Counted from the stretch's first letter, positions 2,715 to 12,408 are shown. The stretch: DNA of 64,000 nucleotides from Candidatus Kaiserbacteria bacterium (GCA_016432285.1 CP066682.1:288933-352932), one strand, 5' to 3'. The notes: a model not told the origin generated them from the letters alone. A program made the numbers and translations.

Positions 2715-2796
2715 ACTTCGACTCGCTTCGCTCGCTCAGTGCAAGCTAACGACTGGGCGGGCGGGACGAAGTGCCCTGAGCTTGTCGAAGGGCTAT

Positions 2797-3045
2797 ATGT
2801 ATTTGGTATACCTTTTGCAATGTAACGACGGATCAATTTACACAGGTATTACCAACGATTTAGAGCGCCGTTTCAATCAGCACAGGACAGGAGCGGGAGG
2901 TCACTACACCAAATCCAAGGGTGTGGTGAGGATTCTATATAGTGAGAAACTCCCAGATCGCAATACTGCACTCAGGCGCGAAGCACAGATCAAAGGCTGG
3001 ACACGAAAGAAAAAGCTAAACCTCATTCAATTCGGAAAGCCGTAA
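2797..3045 (+). CDS. GIY-YIG nuclease superfamily protein (YhbQ-like)
   Basis: YLVYLLQCNDGSIYTGITNDLERRFNQH ... IKGW motif, immediately 3' of the tRNA. Start taken at the internal Met, since the ORF 5' end overlaps the tRNA. Confidence 0.75.
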   Translation: MYLVYLLQCNDGSIYTGITNDLERRFNQHRTGAGGHYTKSKGVVRILYSEKLPDRNTALRREAQIKGWTRKKKLNLIQFGKP

Positions 3046-3146
3046 CCGCATCGACGGCGAGCAAACGAGTCGAGGGGAGACAAGTCCCGCAGCAAGCTTA
3101 GATACTCGGAATTTTTGGAAACGACGGACGGCGGTATACTTACATC

Positions 3147-3941
3147 GTGAGGAAAAAGCTAAGTCCGTGGCTAGAGACGAGTATTGAATACGCTAGTCAG
3201 CGTAGTTATTTGGACGACCTATTCCACGTGTACCCCACTATTCCCGAGGGAATACGCGATATTGACAGTGGCCTCTGGAAAGATGTCGAAAAAGCGTTCG
3301 AGAAACGTGATAATGTCGAGCTGCTTGAAAATCTCCTCAAGCTGGAACTGTTTCCGATAAAGGATTCATACGTCGCCTATCTCAAGCGCGATAAAGGTGC
3401 ATTAAAGCGGAACCCCGCCACGGCCGATCGGCTCGCGGGCCGCTTGTACGAGATGGGCCTCGATGAGATTTTCTCACGTTCATCCGAGCCGAAAGAGACC
3501 AACAGACAGATTGGGCCGTTATTCAAGCGGTGGTTGAGAAATAAGTCTCTGGGCGTCGAGCCTTTACGACTCGAAGCTTTCTTGAGCGCGAAAGGAAACG
3601 CGGTCTTGGACGGTAGCGATGCCGAGATGATGACTTTCGCACGGGAGCATCTCAACTACAAGCACAATAAAGGACTCGACTTCATCGGCCGCTTCAATGG
3701 AAAGTACGTCATCGGCGAAGCAAAGTTTTTAACCGATTTCGGCGGACATCAAAACGCGCAATTCAACGACGCTGTTGCGACGGTAAAGGCGCGCGGAGTG
3801 AAGGCCATTACTGTTGCAATTCTCGACGGGGTTCTCTACATCCGGGGAAAGAATAAAATGTTCAAGGACGTCACCGGTCGTCTGAGAGACGAAAACATCA
3901 TGAGCGCCTTGGTGCTACGAGAGTTTCTTTATCAAATCTAG
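3147..3941 (+). CDS. putative type II restriction endonuclease (PD-(D/E)xK)
   Basis: 264 aa, 4 nt upstream of the methyltransferase. LDF...IGEAKF reads as a D...ExK motif. Lower GC than the flanks. Confidence 0.5.
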   Translation: MRKKLSPWLETSIEYASQRSYLDDLFHVYPTIPEGIRDIDSGLWKDVEKAFEKRDNVELLENLLKLELFPIKDSYVAYLKRDKGALKRNPATADRLAGRLYEMGLDEIFSRSSEPKETNRQIGPLFKRWLRNKSLGVEPLRLEAFLSAKGNAVLDGSDAEMMTFAREHLNYKHNKGLDFIGRFNGKYVIGEAKFLTDFGGHQNAQFNDAVATVKARGVKAITVAILDGVLYIRGKNKMFKDVTGRLRDENIMSALVLREFLYQI

Positions 3942-3945
3942 TGCC

Positions 3946-5112
3946 ATGAAAATCACTTACGACAACAAAAAGTCTGAGCGAGACATCCTCGAAAATGCTC
4001 CGAGAGCAGAATTGTGCGTCGTCGCAGGGGAGGGTGCAGAAAACAAGCTCATTCACTCTGATAACCTCGCCGCACTCAAAGCTCTACTAGACGACTATGC
4101 TGGGAAGGTCGATTTAATTTATATCGACCCCCCGTTTGCCACCAACGGACACTTCAAAATCAGCGACGGCAGGGCAAACACCGTAAGCAGTAGTAATGAC
4201 GATGCTATAGCGTACAGCGACACTATTGTTGGCGAGGAGTTTTTGGAATTTCTTCGCGAACGGTTGATTTTCCTCCGCGAGCTTCTGTCGGAGCGTGGCT
4301 CAATTTACCTTCATATCGATTACAAAATCGGCCACTATGTAAAACTCGTCATGGACGAAGTGTTCGGGCGCGGAATGTTCCGAAACGACATCTCACGAAT
4401 CAAATGCAACCCCAAAAACTTCAATCGCAAGGCATACGGTAACATCAAAGACTTGATACTTTTTTACTCAAAATCCACGGCGCCGACATGGAATGATCCG
4501 CGCGTCTCTTTTTCAGAAGAAGATGAGCGACGTCTGTTTAAAAAATTGGACAGCAGCGGGCGGCGGTACACCACTATTCCGCTCCATGCGCCTGGAGAAA
4601 CCGTAAACGGAAATACGAACAAAGTGTGGAAAGGTATGAAGCCGCCAAAAGGGCGACATTGGAGGACTGACCCTGCGATTCTGGCGGAATGGGACAAACA
4701 GGGATTGATTGAATGGTCGGCAAATGGTGTTCCGCGGAAGAAGATCTTTTTCGACGAAAGAGGTGGGAAGAAGGTGCAGGATATTTGGGAGTTCAAAGAT
4801 CCACAATATCCGAAATATCCTACCGAAAAGAATTTGGATTTGCTGAAGTTCATTATTGAAGCGTCGTCGAATGAAGGGGATCTGGTTCTGGATTGTTTTG
4901 CTGGCTCCGGAACTACGCTTGTTGCGGCGCATTCCCTCGGTCGTCGCTGGATCGGGATTGATAAATCGGAGCCCGCGATAAAGGTCGTCCAAAAGCGACT
5001 CGCGGACATATCGACGGATCTGTTCTCAAAAGTTGAGTACGAGTTCCTCAAAGAAGGGTACGCTGCACCTGCGGCAACAAGTTCGAACAAATCGACACTT
5101 GTTCAAAAATAA
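3946..5112 (+). CDS. DNA methyltransferase, beta-class N4-C/N6-A (N6_N4_Mtase family)
   Basis: Motif IV IYIDPPF precedes motif I FAGSGTT. 388 aa. Confidence 0.85.
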   Translation: MKITYDNKKSERDILENAPRAELCVVAGEGAENKLIHSDNLAALKALLDDYAGKVDLIYIDPPFATNGHFKISDGRANTVSSSNDDAIAYSDTIVGEEFLEFLRERLIFLRELLSERGSIYLHIDYKIGHYVKLVMDEVFGRGMFRNDISRIKCNPKNFNRKAYGNIKDLILFYSKSTAPTWNDPRVSFSEEDERRLFKKLDSSGRRYTTIPLHAPGETVNGNTNKVWKGMKPPKGRHWRTDPAILAEWDKQGLIEWSANGVPRKKIFFDERGGKKVQDIWEFKDPQYPKYPTEKNLDLLKFIIEASSNEGDLVLDCFAGSGTTLVAAHSLGRRWIGIDKSEPAIKVVQKRLADISTDLFSKVEYEFLKEGYAAPAATSSNKSTLVQK

Positions 5113-5117
5113 ATTTG

Positions 5118-5132
5118 GGCAATTGGGGTCTG
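5118..5132. repeat. 15-bp direct repeat GGCAATTGGGGTCTG (copy 1)
   Basis: Exact copy again at 5414..5428. The two bracket a 296-bp segment. Confidence 0.7.
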
Positions 5133-5188
5133 ACCCCACCCCGTGACCTCACCCCGTGACAATAAGAGGAACGGCGCTTTCTAGTCGA

Positions 5189-5392
5189 TTAGTGAGCAGT
5201 GCACGTGCACTTTGTCTCGGCCTCGTTGCATCCTTTGCATTTGGCGACGCAATGATCGCCACCGCACTTGTGTTGCTCGTCGTGTTTTTCTGCTTCCGCA
5301 CCGCACATGTCACATTTGTAGCCAGTCGTCTCATCCCCGCATTTTTTGCATGCCATATCGAAATCTTGATAGTCTGCCGATAATACCCTCAT
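5189..5392 (-). CDS. Cys-rich small protein (14 Cys in 67 aa; zinc-ribbon or metallothionein-like)
   Basis: Contains CKKCG-x8-CDMCG and HKCGGDHCVAKCKGCNEAETKCTC. No clear SD sequence. The + strand ORF here is purely hydrophobic. Confidence 0.35.
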   Translation of the reverse strand: MRVLSADYQDFDMACKKCGDETTGYKCDMCGAEAEKHDEQHKCGGDHCVAKCKGCNEAETKCTCTAH

Positions 5393-5413: not shown

Positions 5414-5428
5414 GGCAATTGGGGTCTG
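5414..5428. repeat. 15-bp direct repeat GGCAATTGGGGTCTG (copy 2)
   Basis: Exact match to 5118..5132. Confidence 0.7.
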
Positions 5429-5531
5429 GCCTCCTCACCGGACGAGTTTCGGGTCTCGGAGATTCCGCAAAGAAGTGGCATAGTGCGGACCGGCTAAGCC
5501 GGAACATTCACACAAACCAGAGGAGGTGGCG

Positions 5532-6002
5532 ATGAAAGGCCACGTCATCGTAGAGCGCGAGTCGAAGGAAGGCTGGATTTTCGTGCCCGACGCGCACCTC
5601 CGCTTCAACATTATCGTGTTGCAGAAGGAGGCCGTCATCAGCGCTGTCGCAACATACCCGGATGGCACGAAGGGTATGTGGTCCTCCAACTTGGAGGAAA
5701 AGATTCGGCGGGACTGCAACTTCGTGACCGAATTGGAAGTTCCGCCCGAGATTGTGCGGTGGGCGCAGTACGCCATCGAGCGCAATCGCAGATGGAACGA
5801 CGAAATACGCAAGGCGGGCGACAGGATGCGTGCCGACGGATACAGCGAGGAGTTTCCAAGCTCCGACGTGACGGACAAGTACTTTGGGCAGGTCGCCAAT
5901 GAACCGAAATGCCCGCCCGAGCTTGGGCTCGACGCGGACGCGCGATTCGCCGTCTATCACGAAGTCCAGGGATGGATTCTCGAAGCGGGAGGGCTCGTCT
6001 GA
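5532..6002 (+). CDS. hypothetical protein, paralog A of a tandem pair
   Basis: AGGAGG lies 5 nt before the ATG at 5532. Starts MKGHVIVERESKEGWIFVP and ends QGWILEAGGLV. Confidence 0.6.
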   Translation: MKGHVIVERESKEGWIFVPDAHLRFNIIVLQKEAVISAVATYPDGTKGMWSSNLEEKIRRDCNFVTELEVPPEIVRWAQYAIERNRRWNDEIRKAGDRMRADGYSEEFPSSDVTDKYFGQVANEPKCPPELGLDADARFAVYHEVQGWILEAGGLV

Positions 6003-6520
6003 TGCGCGGATATATCATCGTCGATCGGCGCAATAAAGAAGGGTCGATCTTCGTCCCCGAAGTCGACCTGCAATTCAAGGCGTGTCCTGGCGGCAAGCGC
6101 GGCTGGCTCGATGTGTATTTCACTGACGGAATGCACTACGAACACAAAGGCGCTCTCGCCACGAAACACGCGGGAGAGCCAAAGACCAAGCAGACGGTCG
6201 TGCAGTGGCTCAAAGCGAACTTCGATTTCGCGAAAGAGATCGACGTCCCGCCTCTGATGATCCGCTTTGCGATCGAAGTAGAAGAAAAGAAACGGAAGCA
6301 AGTGGTAGCGTTCGGCGATCTCTTTGAAAGTATGGTCAAAGGGAAGCCGACGTCTCTCGATCGTGGCGGCGAGCAAGGCTTCAAGGCCATGGAGCGCGCC
6401 GTACACCGGGCGAGGGATATCATGGCCTCGAAAGAAGTCGGCGAGCTTTCGGACGCCAAGAAGCACGCCATGGCTCTCCAGATCCAGCGTTGGATCCATG
6501 AAGCAGGTGGCCTCTGCTAG
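6002..6520 (+). CDS. hypothetical protein, paralog B of a tandem pair
   Basis: Start overlaps the upstream stop as TGATG. Starts MRGYIIVDRRNKEGSIFVP, has an EIDVPP block, and ends QRWIHEAGGLC, all paralleling paralog A. Confidence 0.6.
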   Translation: MRGYIIVDRRNKEGSIFVPEVDLQFKACPGGKRGWLDVYFTDGMHYEHKGALATKHAGEPKTKQTVVQWLKANFDFAKEIDVPPLMIRFAIEVEEKKRKQVVAFGDLFESMVKGKPTSLDRGGEQGFKAMERAVHRARDIMASKEVGELSDAKKHAMALQIQRWIHEAGGLC

Positions 6521-6596
6521 CAACAACGGCACGACCTCCCAAGGTCGTGCCCTTTCTTTTTGCGGCGAAGCTTGGGTCTTTTGGTAAAATACAAAA

Positions 6597-6848
6597 ATGG
6601 CCACGAAGTCTGTTGCGACGGGTACTGTGCATAAACTGCCGGACGATTTGCGAAAGGCGGTCGCCTCCGACAAGAAAGTGCTTGCGCTCTGGGAGGACAT
6701 CACGCCCTTGGCGCGCAACGAGTGGATCTGCTGGGTGACATCCGGCAAAAAGGCAGAGACAAGGGGCATCCGCATCGAAAAAGCCCTCTCGAAAATGCGG
6801 GGCGGCATGCGAAGGCCCTGCTGCTGGGCCGGCTGCGTGCATCGCTAG
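6597..6848 (+). CDS. YdeI/OmpD-associated (bacteriocin-protection) family protein
   Basis: LPDDLRKAV...LARNEWICWVTSGKKAETRGIRIEKAL signature. Confidence 0.65.
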   Translation: MATKSVATGTVHKLPDDLRKAVASDKKVLALWEDITPLARNEWICWVTSGKKAETRGIRIEKALSKMRGGMRRPCCWAGCVHR

Positions 6849-9208: not shown

Positions 9209-9478
9209 ATGAGATCACCGATCAAGCAAAAGGCGCTGCGGCGCCTCAAGATTATCGAGGGGCAGGTGCGCGGGCTCCGGAGCATGGTGGAGGAGGAGAA
9301 GTACTGCGTGGACATCATTACCCAGTCCAACGCGGTCAAAGAGGCGCTCTCCGGCGTCGAGGATTTGGTGCTCGAAAATCACCTCTCGACCCACGTGCGG
9401 CACCAGATGAAGAGCGGGAAGGACGCGAAGGCGATCGAGGAGGTCATGAAGATCTACAAGCTCGCGCAGAAGAAATAA
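9209..9478 (+). CDS. csoR: CsoR/RcnR-family metal-sensing transcriptional repressor
   Basis: 89 aa. LRRLKIIEGQVRGLRSMVEEEKYCVDIITQ...HLSTHV matches the DUF156 metalloregulator pattern. Confidence 0.8.
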   Translation: MRSPIKQKALRRLKIIEGQVRGLRSMVEEEKYCVDIITQSNAVKEALSGVEDLVLENHLSTHVRHQMKSGKDAKAIEEVMKIYKLAQKK

Positions 9479-9587
9479 GTCTATGAAGACGCAACGGATT
9501 TTCTCTACGGTGCGTGTGGCGGGAGGGAGGTCGATCCCGGCGCAGTAACCGGATTCGTGAGGATTATCAAGTAACGAACAAAAAGGT

Positions 9588-9935
9588 ATGGATACGAAAT
9601 TGATTACAGGCATCGTCGGCGGACTGATCGTAGGCGCTCTCGCGGGCTTCTACCTCTCTCCCGGCTCGAGCTCGCAGAGCGCGAGCGGCATGACGAGTGA
9701 GATGAACAACGCAGGCATGATGATGCAGCAGGGCGGCTCGTCGATGATGCAGATGGGGCAGATGATGATGTCGGCTGGGCAGATGATGCAGCAGAAAGGC
9801 ACGCAGTACGAAGATTCGGAGATGATGCAGAGCGGCAAGGAGCTTGAGACGAGCGGCAACACCATGATGCAGCAAGGCAAGGAACTCTCGGACGAGAGCG
9901 GACCACTGATGCAGGGCATGCAAATGGGTCAGTAA
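9588..9935 (+). CDS. Met-rich membrane-anchored protein (putative Cu(I)-binding)
   Basis: N-terminal TM, then MMMQQGGSSMMQMGQMMMSAGQMMQQ-type repeats. About 25% Met. Confidence 0.55.
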   Translation: MDTKLITGIVGGLIVGALAGFYLSPGSSSQSASGMTSEMNNAGMMMQQGGSSMMQMGQMMMSAGQMMQQKGTQYEDSEMMQSGKELETSGNTMMQQGKELSDESGPLMQGMQMGQ

Positions 9936-9968
9936 GCGAAGATTACCAACTTCTTATAGAAAGCACGT

Positions 9969-10214
9969 ATGAACAGGACACTGAAAATTGGCGCGGCATG
10001 GACAAGTATCGCGTGGACTGTGTGTTACGTAGGTGTGGGACTCATTCCGCAGCTCCGCGACACGGTCCTCAACAATCTCGTCCACACAAATGTGCCCGTG
10101 GGAGCCAACATCTTTTCGCTCGGCGGTTTCCTCGCGGGCCTCGTTCTGTGGAATGTGATCGTGGCGGCGGGAATCTGGCTCTGGTTCTTCCTCGCGGCGC
10201 GGATCAAAAGCTAG
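9969..10214 (+). CDS. small membrane protein
   Basis: 81 aa with 2-3 TM. Inside the copper island. Confidence 0.4.
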   Translation: MNRTLKIGAAWTSIAWTVCYVGVGLIPQLRDTVLNNLVHTNVPVGANIFSLGGFLAGLVLWNVIVAAGIWLWFFLAARIKS

Positions 10215-10239
10215 CGAATCAGAAACTATCATCGAACGT

Positions 10240-10680
10240 ATGAGCACCACCCCAAAACCAGCACTCTTCGGGCTTCTTGCGAGTACATCGCTTCTTGCGG
10301 TGTACTTCGCGGTGCTCACGCTGGTTTCGGGGTGGAGCTTCGCGCAGAATCAGTTCGCAACCTACTGGTACTTCATCGTGAGCCTTGCGCTCGGTTTTGG
10401 AGTACAGATCGGACTCTACACGTATCTCCGCAGATTGCTTGCCGGCATGCACGGCGAAGGAAGGGTCGTGGGGGTAACGGGCACGACCTCGGCACTCGCG
10501 ATGATCTCGTGCTGCGCTCACTACCTCGCCAACCTGCTTCCGATCCTCGGCGCGGTGGGGCTCGTCACCTTCGTCGCGTCCTACCAGACGCAGCTTTTCT
10601 GGATCGGCCTCCTCTTCAATCTCGGCGGGACCCTCTTCATGGCAAACCGCATCCGCTCGTTCAAGAAAATGCACGTATGA
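10240..10680 (+). CDS. membrane protein with CC motif (uncharacterised)
   Basis: 146 aa, 4 TM, ISCCAHY in a helix. Confidence 0.5.
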   Translation: MSTTPKPALFGLLASTSLLAVYFAVLTLVSGWSFAQNQFATYWYFIVSLALGFGVQIGLYTYLRRLLAGMHGEGRVVGVTGTTSALAMISCCAHYLANLLPILGAVGLVTFVASYQTQLFWIGLLFNLGGTLFMANRIRSFKKMHV

Positions 10681-11138
10681 AAAACGCGTTGCTCTACATA
10701 AGCGTCGCACTCCTCGTCGGGCTCGGGATCTATGCGTTTGCAATACGCGGGCAGGAGAGCGCGGCGCCTGCCAGTGTGCAATCGAATGTGCTGGCGGAAG
10801 GCACGTGGGAGACGAAGACCAATAACGAGGCGTCGGTCACGGTGGCCGTAACGCCGCTCTCGCTGGGTGGGAGCGCTTCCGAGTGGCGGTTCAAGGTGGT
10901 CTTAGACACGCACACGGGCAGCCTCGACCGGGATCTTCTTGAAACGACCACGCTGTCAGACGGCTCAGGCGCGACCTACCGCGCTTCGCGCTGGGAAGGC
11001 GATCCACCCGGCGGGCATCACCGCGAAGGGGAGCTGACCTTCGAGCGAATCGACCCGACTCCTTCACGCATTACCATTCGTATAAACGATCTTGGCGGCG
11101 TCCCGGAAAGGACCTTGAGCTGGGACATCCAAAAATAA
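10677..11138 (+). CDS. secreted hypothetical protein
   Basis: ATGA start/stop overlap with the upstream gene. N-terminal TM or signal, beta-rich domain with GGHH. Confidence 0.55.
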
Positions 11139-11139
11139 T

Positions 11140-11355
11140 ATGAATCACGATTGTTGCGGCGGCCACGAGAAGCACGAACACAAAGCTTCGACCGCAAGCG
11201 CAGAAACGTACACGTGCCCCATGCACCCCGAGGTGCAGAAGGACGAGCCCGGCTCGTGCCCGGATTGCGGCATGTACTTGGTCCCGAAGTCGGCCGAGGC
11301 AACCGGGGGGCACCACAAAAACGAAGGCGCGCACAAAGGCGGGTGTTGCTCGTAA
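11140..11355 (+). CDS. heavy-metal-binding-domain (HMBD, YxCPMHP...CPxCGM) mini-protein
   Basis: YTCPMHPEV...[11 protein letters not shown] core flanked by [11 protein letters not shown] and [16 protein letters not shown]. Confidence 0.7.
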
Positions 11356-11436
11356 ATCACACGGCTTCCACATTGTATGAACACGAAAATTCTATTGATA
11401 AGTACTCTGGGGATCGCGGTCGTCGCAGGCGCGGGC

Positions 11437-11543
11437 AGAAGATCGTCATGGTGACGCACGAGCTGGACGATCGGCAGTATGTCGACCGCACGATCTGGCT
11501 TGAGGACGGGCGTCTGGAAAAAGTCGAGGAGGGCGTGAAGTAG
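11437..11543 (+). pseudogene. C-terminal remnant of an ABC transporter ATP-binding protein
   Basis: Frame encodes ...GQKIVMVTHELDDRQYVDRTIWLEDGRLEKVEEGVK (H-loop/C-terminus) with no Walker A/B upstream. Confidence 0.45.
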
Positions 11544-11547
11544 GTCT

Positions 11548-12408
11548 ATGGATATTCTCACCAACGTATCGATCGTCGCGGCGTTCATCGCCGGAGTTGC
11601 GGCGCTCTTCGCGCCGTGCTGTATCACGGTGCTGCTTCCGTCGTACCTCGGCTCGGTCTTTCAGGAGCGCTACAAGGTCCTGCTCATGACGTTTGTCTTT
11701 TTCCTCGGCATCCTCGCGGTCTTTCTTCCCATCGGCCTCGGGGCCGCCGCGCTCGCGCGCTTTTTCAACACCTACCACAATTTCATCTTCACGCTCGGGG
11801 GACTCATGCTCTCCGGACTTGGTATCGCGCTCATCCTCGGCAAAACGTTCTCGATTCCTTCGCCGGTCTCTGCGCGCTTTGCTGGCACGGGCGCGCTCTC
11901 GATCTTTCTGCTCGGCGTCTTTTCGGCCGTGGCAACGACGTGCTGCGCACCCGTGCTCGCGGGCGTCCTCGCGCTCTCTGCGGCGAGCGGCAGTATCTTC
12001 TGGGGCGGCATCTACACCTTGAGCTACGTGCTCGGCATGGTTGCGCCACTCTTTCTCATCGCCGTCTTCCTCGACAAAGTGGATTTCACGGAGCGGTTCG
12101 CGACGCTGCATAAAACACGCACAGCTAAGATCGGGCGCTTCGAGTGGACGTTCAAACCCGCGGAGCTTGTTGCCGGACTCGTGTTCCTCGGGATGGGGAT
12201 CTACATCATCTACCTCGCGCTTGCGAATCAGCTCACCATGGAAGGGGGCTACCAGCTCGAGATCAATCTCTTCTTTGCCAACCTCGTACACTCCGTACAC
12301 CGCTACACGCAGACTATCCCAGAGATCGCGTGGGCCCTCTTCGTACTGGCTGCGCTTGTTCTCATCGCGTGGTTTTCCATTTATCAGTTTATTCGCATTA
12401 AAAAGTAA
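11548..12408 (+). CDS. CcdA/DsbD-family thiol:disulfide transmembrane electron carrier
   Basis: 286 aa. Cys pairs inside TM helices: FAPCCITVLLP and ATTCCAPVLAG. Confidence 0.7.
   Translation: MDILTNVSIVAAFIAGVAALFAPCCITVLLPSYLGSVFQERYKVLLMTFVFFLGILAVFLPIGLGAAALARFFNTYHNFIFTLGGLMLSGLGIALILGKTFSIPSPVSARFAGTGALSIFLLGVFSAVATTCCAPVLAGVLALSAASGSIFWGGIYTLSYVLGMVAPLFLIAVFLDKVDFTERFATLHKTRTAKIGRFEWTFKPAELVAGLVFLGMGIYIIYLALANQLTMEGGYQLEINLFFANLVHSVHRYTQTIPEIAWALFVLAALVLIAWFSIYQFIRIKK

Follow-up and report, generated by a model that had tools for sequence, protein, structure and literature searches.

The locus examined here raises the question of whether two small, overlapping genes that lie beside an RM module belong to its cargo or constitute a resident operon with a role of its own. 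The genes, ORF A and ORF B, occupy positions 5532-6520 of the window, by which we mean the whole stretch of 64,000 nucleotides of Candidatus Kaiserbacteria DNA that was analysed. A preliminary description placed them in a tRNA-Gln-adjacent variable islet and took that setting as typical of defence or toxin-related cargo. We consider it very probable that the two genes are instead a real, conserved and translationally coupled operon of paralogs from an unclassified family restricted to CPR bacteria, and not cargo of the RM system. The composite reading, to which we would give a probability of roughly 0.55, goes further: this bicistronic operon arose by one ancient duplication, and from the tandem arrangement and its known analogues we infer that its products would form a non-enzymatic A:B hetero-oligomer.

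Both genes are on the plus strand. ORF A (5532-6002, 156 aa) starts with the ATG at 5532 and ends with the TGA at 6000-6002, and ORF B (6002-6520, 172 aa) runs from the ATG at 6002-6004 to the TAG at 6518-6520. The stop and start codons overlap as TGATG (6000-6004, plus strand, within the string CTGATGC), base 6002 being common to the two; coordinates and overlap are as first described. A Shine-Dalgarno (SD) sequence, GGAGG, can be read from the sequence at 5522-5526 on the plus strand, 5 nt 5′ of the ATG of A. A second, internal GGAGG for B (5988-5992, plus strand) is formed by codons Gly153-Gly154 of A and lies 9 nt before the ATG of B. On the 3′ side of B, at 6528-6561 of the same strand, there is an intrinsic-terminator-like hairpin (10 bp stem with seven GC pairs) followed by the T-run CTTTCTTTTT. 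With its own SD before A and a terminator-like hairpin after B, the A-B pair is thus a self-contained bicistronic unit. The two proteins align over their full length with 26% identity (BLASTP, E 4e-12). They share an N-terminal block (MKGHVIVERESKEGWIFVP in A, MRGYIIVDRRNKEGSIFVP in B), a central block (ELEVPP in A, EIDVPP in B) and a C-terminal block (QGWILEAGGLV in A, QRWIHEAGGLC in B). These are the blocks picked out in the preliminary description, and all three are invariant or nearly so among 20 A and B orthologs; tandem paralogy, and the retention of the blocks in related genomes, are both well supported.

The genes are also conserved as a pair. A search of 5.8 billion proteins returned 11 proteins of the A type (A itself and ten orthologs at 48-79% identity) and nine of the B type (B itself and eight orthologs at 50-70% identity). 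The window proteins themselves match HYS26_01725/01730, and all named matches come from Candidatus Kaiserbacteria or Paceibacterota MAGs. The order A then B is kept in five further independent Parcubacteria/Paceibacterota contigs (L001, L002 with L003, L004, L005 with L006, and L007), which makes six pair loci including the window. A one-base stop/start overlap of the form T(G/A)ATG is present in all six, with neighbours that differ between loci. Pairwise dN/dS ratios of 0.08-0.26 for A and 0.09-0.29 for B indicate purifying selection on both genes, and synonymous sites are near or at saturation between the pair loci. The combination of low dN/dS and near-saturated synonymous sites identifies A and B as old, constrained orthologs.

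The translational coupling suspected from the window alone is borne out by these comparisons, in the overlap kept at six of six loci and in an internal GGAGG fixed at synonymous sites. The Gly-Gly codons of A are GGA GG(G/A) in all six loci and the spacing from GGAGG to the ATG of B is constant, whereas at the homologous Gly-Gly of B, behind which no further gene is encoded, GGT, GGC and GGA alternate freely. This difference is a synonymous-site constraint for an internal ribosome-binding site and, at the level of sequence, the codons of A are direct evidence that coupling is under selection. The string GGAGGTGGC(A/G)ATG before A recurs in the window, L001 and L002; in L004, L005 and L007 the site before A is purine-rich and of the GGAGA type. 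GC-rich hairpins with T-runs, read by eye, also follow B in L001, L002, L004 and L005. The A/B junction has no conserved or unusually stable RNA structure that would sequester the SD (z-scores of -1.3 to +1.4), so the coupling would seem to proceed by simple termination-reinitiation, with the SD accessible from the outset and not unmasked.

The family to which the pair belongs is small. HMMER, run exhaustively over 1.84 billion cluster representatives (clusters at 50% identity), gave 32 proteins at E<=1e-3; a word-indexed search with a profile of the 20 A-type and B-type sequences added nothing, and neither did metagenome scans for further loci. Besides the A and B types there are diverged relatives of about 135-162 aa (typically about 145 aa), with the consensus MxGQIIVExxxGxRWIYVPEAHIQF...AFRTDGY...WL...QFTxEVEVPxxIVxFAVESERxRQ...AGGLQ. 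The sole diverged relative given a taxon by its source is from a Parcubacteria MAG, and the family has so far been seen only in Parcubacteria/Paceibacterota (CPR). In each of the eight singleton loci obtained (L008, L009, L013, L015, L017, L019, L020 and L021) the relative is one monocistronic copy. These eight, the window and the five other pairs are the 14 loci compared below. A profile scan of all ORFs counted exactly two copies in every pair locus and a single one in every singleton locus, with no extra copies in the 64-kb window or the other loci. In a neighbour-joining tree the A clade and the B clade are monophyletic sisters against the diverse singletons, which implies that one duplication gave the pair; a B-like orphan fragment, P0022, falls with the A and B clades. 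Since B consistently outscores A against the singletons, A is the more derived copy and B the closer to the single-copy relatives.

Two proteins at the margin of the family are of a different kind. P0041 (1719 aa), a surface protein with PKD/Ig-like repeats, aligns weakly seven times with the N-terminal beta-meander of the profile (positions 5-50). Its repeats are PKD domains and its score sums a beta-hairpin pattern over them, unlike the family, and it was rejected as spurious. In P0044, a metagenomic protein of 117 aa, the C-terminal 52 residues are an A-type tail (…YRQVQGWILEAGGLV) and the N-terminus is unrelated and signal-peptide-like; a frameshift or a chimeric gene call, on a contig that is short, is the probable origin.

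The original impression that the family is an unrecognised one has survived a wide range of searches. Pfam, NCBIfam, PHROGs and PADLOC, queried with A, B and the neighbouring Cys-rich ORF, yielded nothing significant for A or B, and all 34 family members run singly against Pfam, PHROGs and PADLOC gave sub-threshold, scattered matches only. The sole Pfam model listed for A, DUF5999 (PF19462), aligns weakly to 32 C-terminal residues (E 0.2, 12.1 bits against a cutoff of 27.5 bits) and matches one of the 34 members, a chance-level result on which DUF5999 was rejected as the family of A. In PADLOC-DB v2 there is no match for A or B at E<=1, and the 34 members give three scattered single matches (E>=0.01); PHROGs gave none for A or B and scattered ones among the 34 (E>=0.03). 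No family member was found on viral contigs (IMG/VR). Foldseek searches found no PDB structure at E<=0.001 for A (best E 0.32, TM 0.24) or for B (best E 1.8), and none in BFVD at E<=0.001 for A (best E 0.28, TM<=0.26). A literature search on the family returned only general papers on CPR protein families.

Sequence profiles of the PDB, searched with A and B together and with a singleton profile, gave nothing beyond a 15-residue motif like that of RII-alpha (E 0.034). The likeness is between PPDLVEFAVEY of the PKA RII-alpha dimerisation/docking helix (in the PDB 5h78_A fusion) and the P-D-x-V-E-F-A-V-E with which the long helix of the singletons begins. The PDB entry is a designed-repeat fusion chain with about 15 residues aligned, the architecture around the motif differs from that of the family, and there is no Pfam RIIa match; we rejected the likeness as chance. 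The N-terminal V-I-V-x-R...G-G-I-x-V-P motif resembles that of GroES/Cpn10. None of the 34 members matches Cpn10 at E<=1, the predicted fold is a five-strand sheet with three long helices as opposed to the GroES beta-barrel, and no chaperonin appears among the Foldseek matches. The C-terminal Gly-Gly might likewise call to mind ubiquitin-like or Pup-like modifiers, which are beta-grasp or disordered proteins whose C-terminal GG (or GGQ/GGE) is exposed and whose genes accompany those for E1, ligase or JAB/Dop-type proteins. The GG of A and B precedes L-x, the tail is beta-bridged to the sheet in the model, the topology is not beta-grasp, and ThiF, JAB, Dop and PafA families are absent among the neighbours at the other loci examined. 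Formally, then, the A-B family lies outside every known kind. Novelty here means that it matches nothing known, as opposed to a demonstrated new mechanism, and there are many such orphan families in CPR.

What kind of proteins are these? ORF A is acidic (pI 5.05) and ORF B, in this genome, is basic (pI 9.2); most family members are acidic (pI 4.4-5.5), apart from the B-type copies. Net charge is -4 to -11 in most A orthologs (about +1 in P0011) and -2 to +5 in B. Overall hydropathy is negative (GRAVY about -0.5 for both), and no signal peptide or membrane segment is obvious in A or B on reading the sequences. AlphaFold2 models were built from the 20-sequence alignment. The model of A (pLDDT 89.8, pTM 0.83) has strands at 2-8, 13-18, 23-29, 34-40 and 62-69 and helices at 54-61, 72-101 (30 residues), 111-118 and 135-151, with the C-terminal tail forming a beta-bridge to the sheet. 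The model of B (pLDDT 79.9, pTM 0.71) has the same topology with an additional hairpin within the 41-65 insert. The columns conserved in all three groups, A, B and singletons alike, are occupied mostly by Met1, glycines, prolines and hydrophobic residues, with a few acidic or basic ones, and the alignment contains no catalytic-looking constellation common to all three groups. Polar conservation is found within subfamilies: A has invariant His4, His22, Glu55, Cys62 and Arg138, and the singletons conserve the motifs FRTDG and ESER. Two sets of singleton motifs are divided between the paralogs, A having kept the His of PEAH and lost TDG and WL, and B having kept TDG and WL and lost the His.

The course of events that we favour can be set out as follows. 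The ancestor, a small (about 150 aa), soluble alpha+beta protein, would have acted as a homo-oligomer. A single ancient duplication gave rise to A and B, each of which lost different ancestral residues, and the two would have become an obligate hetero-oligomer whose subunits translational coupling keeps in matched amounts. The complex would more probably serve as a binding, scaffold or adaptor module than as an enzyme, given that catalytic-looking residues common to the family are lacking. The operon is a long-term resident of its host, flanking only by chance an RM islet that inserted at tRNA-Gln. The heteromeric step, which the preliminary description also raised, is modelled on how duplicated homomers, and co-translated paralogs in tandem, generally behave. 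EsxB/EsxA (WXG100), CpcB/CpcA (phycocyanin) and LuxA/LuxB are tandem co-translated paralog pairs that form obligate heterodimers. Like them, A and B are diverged paralogs that are adjacent, in fixed order, co-transcribed, tightly co-translated and under purifying selection; unlike them, the A-B pair has its heterodimer suggested by this parallel, and it has no sequence or fold similarity to EsxBA, CpcBA or LuxAB. The same predicted topology in A and B, the meeting of an acidic A with a neutral-to-basic B in most pairs, and the complementary loss of motifs can plausibly be counted in favour of an A:B heteromer. A still more specific proposal, that the heteromer has a new alpha+beta fold, is specific to Parcubacteria and fills a lineage-specific cellular role, can be put forward only tentatively. 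If it were true, the complex could be an adaptor or scaffold that serves life as an episymbiont with a reduced genome, or else a mimic or inhibitor, moderately acidic, of host or phage proteins.

The alternative that fares best is that A and B are subfunctionalised paralogs acting separately, each as its own homo-oligomer or with its own partner, so that the overlap serves co-expression only. The single-copy relatives evidently function alone, and at 26% identity A and B differ in charge and in the motifs they have retained, all of which would suit independent roles. However, the genes are never separated in the six pair loci and the coupling signals are selected at synonymous sites, and by analogy with cpcBA, luxAB and esxBA such coupling would be more typical of stoichiometric partners. 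We therefore regard separate action as a possible reading, yet one that is clearly less probable than the A:B hetero-oligomer.

It is unlikely that the proteins are orphan immunity or antitoxin-like factors that neutralise a toxin from competitors or from a host organism, with the tandem duplication comparable to a polyimmunity array. Such proteins would be expected to look much like these in being small, acidic, without catalytic motifs and arranged as tandem paralogs, and the patchy, lineage-restricted distribution (32 clusters among 1.84 billion) and varying genomic positions also fit. Yet a toxin-domain gene is adjacent in none of the 14 loci, dN/dS is low, and a pair that is coupled strictly 1:1, keeps one order and falls into two old sister clades is unlike arrays of fast turnover and variable copy number. 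Polymorphic-toxin immunity arrays lie downstream of a toxin-domain gene and vary in copy number; with no such neighbour in the 14 loci and a copy number fixed at two or one, that class was rejected. Type II toxin-antitoxin systems consist of two unrelated small proteins, a toxin fold and a DNA-binding antitoxin, that are always paired. This class was rejected as well, A and B being each other's paralogs, without a toxin or antitoxin Pfam match, and their relatives being single genes.

The reading that the preliminary description favoured, in which the pair is defence or toxin-related cargo of the tRNA-Gln islet (an RM accessory, an anti-restriction/DNA-mimic pair or an abortive-infection pair), can be weighed against the make-up of the islet. 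ARAGORN places tRNA-Gln at 2643-2714. The last 14 nt of the gene (CAAGTCCCGCAGCA, 2702-2715) are repeated exactly at 3081-3094, bracketing an ORF with a GIY-YIG Pfam match (about 2797-3045, GC 0.45), and this repeat resembles the att-type duplication that a very small element would leave on inserting into the 3′ end of the tRNA. A Tsp45I-type REase (3147-3941, Pfam E 1e-116) and an N6/N4 MTase (3946-5112, Pfam DNA methylase) follow, 4 nt apart and with GC of about 0.49 against a background of 0.58; together they constitute a type II RM module that this CPR genome gained recently. The minus strand between the module and ORF A carries a Cys-rich ORF (5189-5392, 67 codons, about 14 Cys, with CxxC pairs), which lacks homologs in the other loci and whose only family match is a weak zinc-finger one (E 0.05). 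The ORF is bracketed by copies of an 18-nt direct repeat, GGCAATTGGGGTCTG(A/G)CC, at 5118-5135 and 5414-5431, which suggests that the Cys-rich micro-cassette is a separate small insertion. An OmdA/YdeI-like gene, assigned by Pfam, lies at 6597-6848, just 3′ of B. The neighbours are thus those originally named, namely the RM pair, the Cys-rich ORF, the YdeI-like gene and tRNA-Gln; the pair itself, however, is not inside the islet but just outside its low-GC tract.

Several observations might still tie the pair to defence. It is about 420 bp from the RM genes and adjoins the repeat-bracketed islet, most family members are acidic, as DNA mimics are, and mobile or TA genes lie a few kb from the family elsewhere (an integrase in L001, SocA_Panacea in L013, RelB/YafQ in L020). 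Against this, the pair has the composition of its host and not of the islet. GC is 0.48-0.51 across about 2750-5250, where the window mean is 0.583. GC3 is 0.49 for the GIY-YIG ORF, 0.54 for the MTase, 0.56 for the Cys-rich ORF and 0.61 for the REase, compared with 0.76 for A, 0.70 for B, 0.77 for OmdA and 0.67-0.73 for other host genes. Across the family, GC follows each host, from 0.47 to 0.60. The right-most copy of the islet repeats (5414-5431) lies upstream of A, which marks the pair as native flank, and no att-like repeats surround the pair itself in the window, L001, L002 or L007. An RM gene is adjacent in only one of the 14 loci, there is no RM or defence gene adjacent in the other 13 and no neighbour is conserved, and hence the expectation that homologs would travel with RM or defence genes is not borne out. 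PADLOC has no match for A, B or any consistent subset of the 34 members, the family is on no viral contigs, and a pI of 4.4-5.5 is only moderately acidic. Taken together these results make the defence-cargo reading improbable. Least plausible of the alternatives is an enzyme or small-ligand-binding protein of a fold absent from the PDB so far, for which the subfamily-invariant polar residues of A, the FRTDG and ESER motifs of the singletons and the compact, well-ordered predicted domain might speak, but not one of those residues is conserved in all three groups at once, the sequences lack any motif for binding a cofactor or nucleotide, and no metabolic gene neighbourhood is conserved.

The diversity of neighbours can be seen by listing them. 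The other pair loci adjoin Thr synthase and MFS, SmpB and tmRNA, DUF5652 and TPM, NUDIX and DUF2784, or L19 and tRNA-Leu. Singletons are found near LeuRS and YchF, S7 and S12, DUF218 and UDG, ParB_N and lactate permease, methyltransferases, or pyruvate kinase. All-vs-all BLAST of the ORFs within 6 kb, in the six pair loci and five singleton loci, found no common neighbour except one OmdA pair. The second OmdA/YdeI-like protein is encoded at L013 1795-2046, 2.4 kb upstream of the singleton family member on an unrelated contig, and is 64% identical to the protein of window 6597-6848; as the sole neighbour common to any two loci it is probably a coincidence. Translation-related and tRNA neighbours (tmRNA/SmpB, L19/tRNA-Leu, S7/S12, LeuRS, YchF) were considered as a possible link and set aside, their frequency being, by a rough estimate, no higher than small CPR genomes would lead one to expect. 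Four of the six pair loci have a tRNA or tmRNA gene within about 3 kb (p about 0.05, a rough estimate), and this statistically marginal proximity could hint at past mobility. In L002 (7560-8000) the pair begins 65 nt after the tmRNA gene, beside smpB; in L007 (4561-4968) it begins about 330 nt after tRNA-Leu; and in L001 an integrase and tRNA-Thr lie about 2-3 kb downstream of B.

Returning to the coupled paralog operon with its putative heteromeric product, the practical upshot is negative: A and B do not belong in a tally of RM-island or defence cargo. This rare family shows no tie to defence, mobility or a specific pathway. A large part of bacterial diversity consists of CPR, and much of their proteome lacks annotation; within it this family is clean and well delimited. 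The confident models, the absence of a solved-structure match and the natural contrast between singleton and pair make it tractable for structural genomics and for the study of how a homomer becomes an obligate heteromer. If the more specific proposal of a Parcubacteria-specific heteromer with a new fold is true, the transition from singleton to pair would be a clean natural example of that change.

Two minor observations concern other genes on the same sequences. In L002, between 8982 and 9756, a 34-nt terminator-like element (AAAAGCCCCGCTTTCGCGGAGCTTTTTTATTTTT) is present in three copies, of which two are identical and the third is 65% identical; each of the three small genes that come in succession after B is followed by one copy. 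In the window, 9209-12408 holds a probable metal (copper) homeostasis cluster, comprising a CsoR/RcnR-type repressor (9209-9478), a Met/Gln-rich protein of 115 aa with no Pfam match (9588-9935), a protein of 71 aa (11140-11355) that has a heavy-metal-binding domain and CC and CCS ends, and a membrane protein of DsbD_TM-like type (11548-12408).
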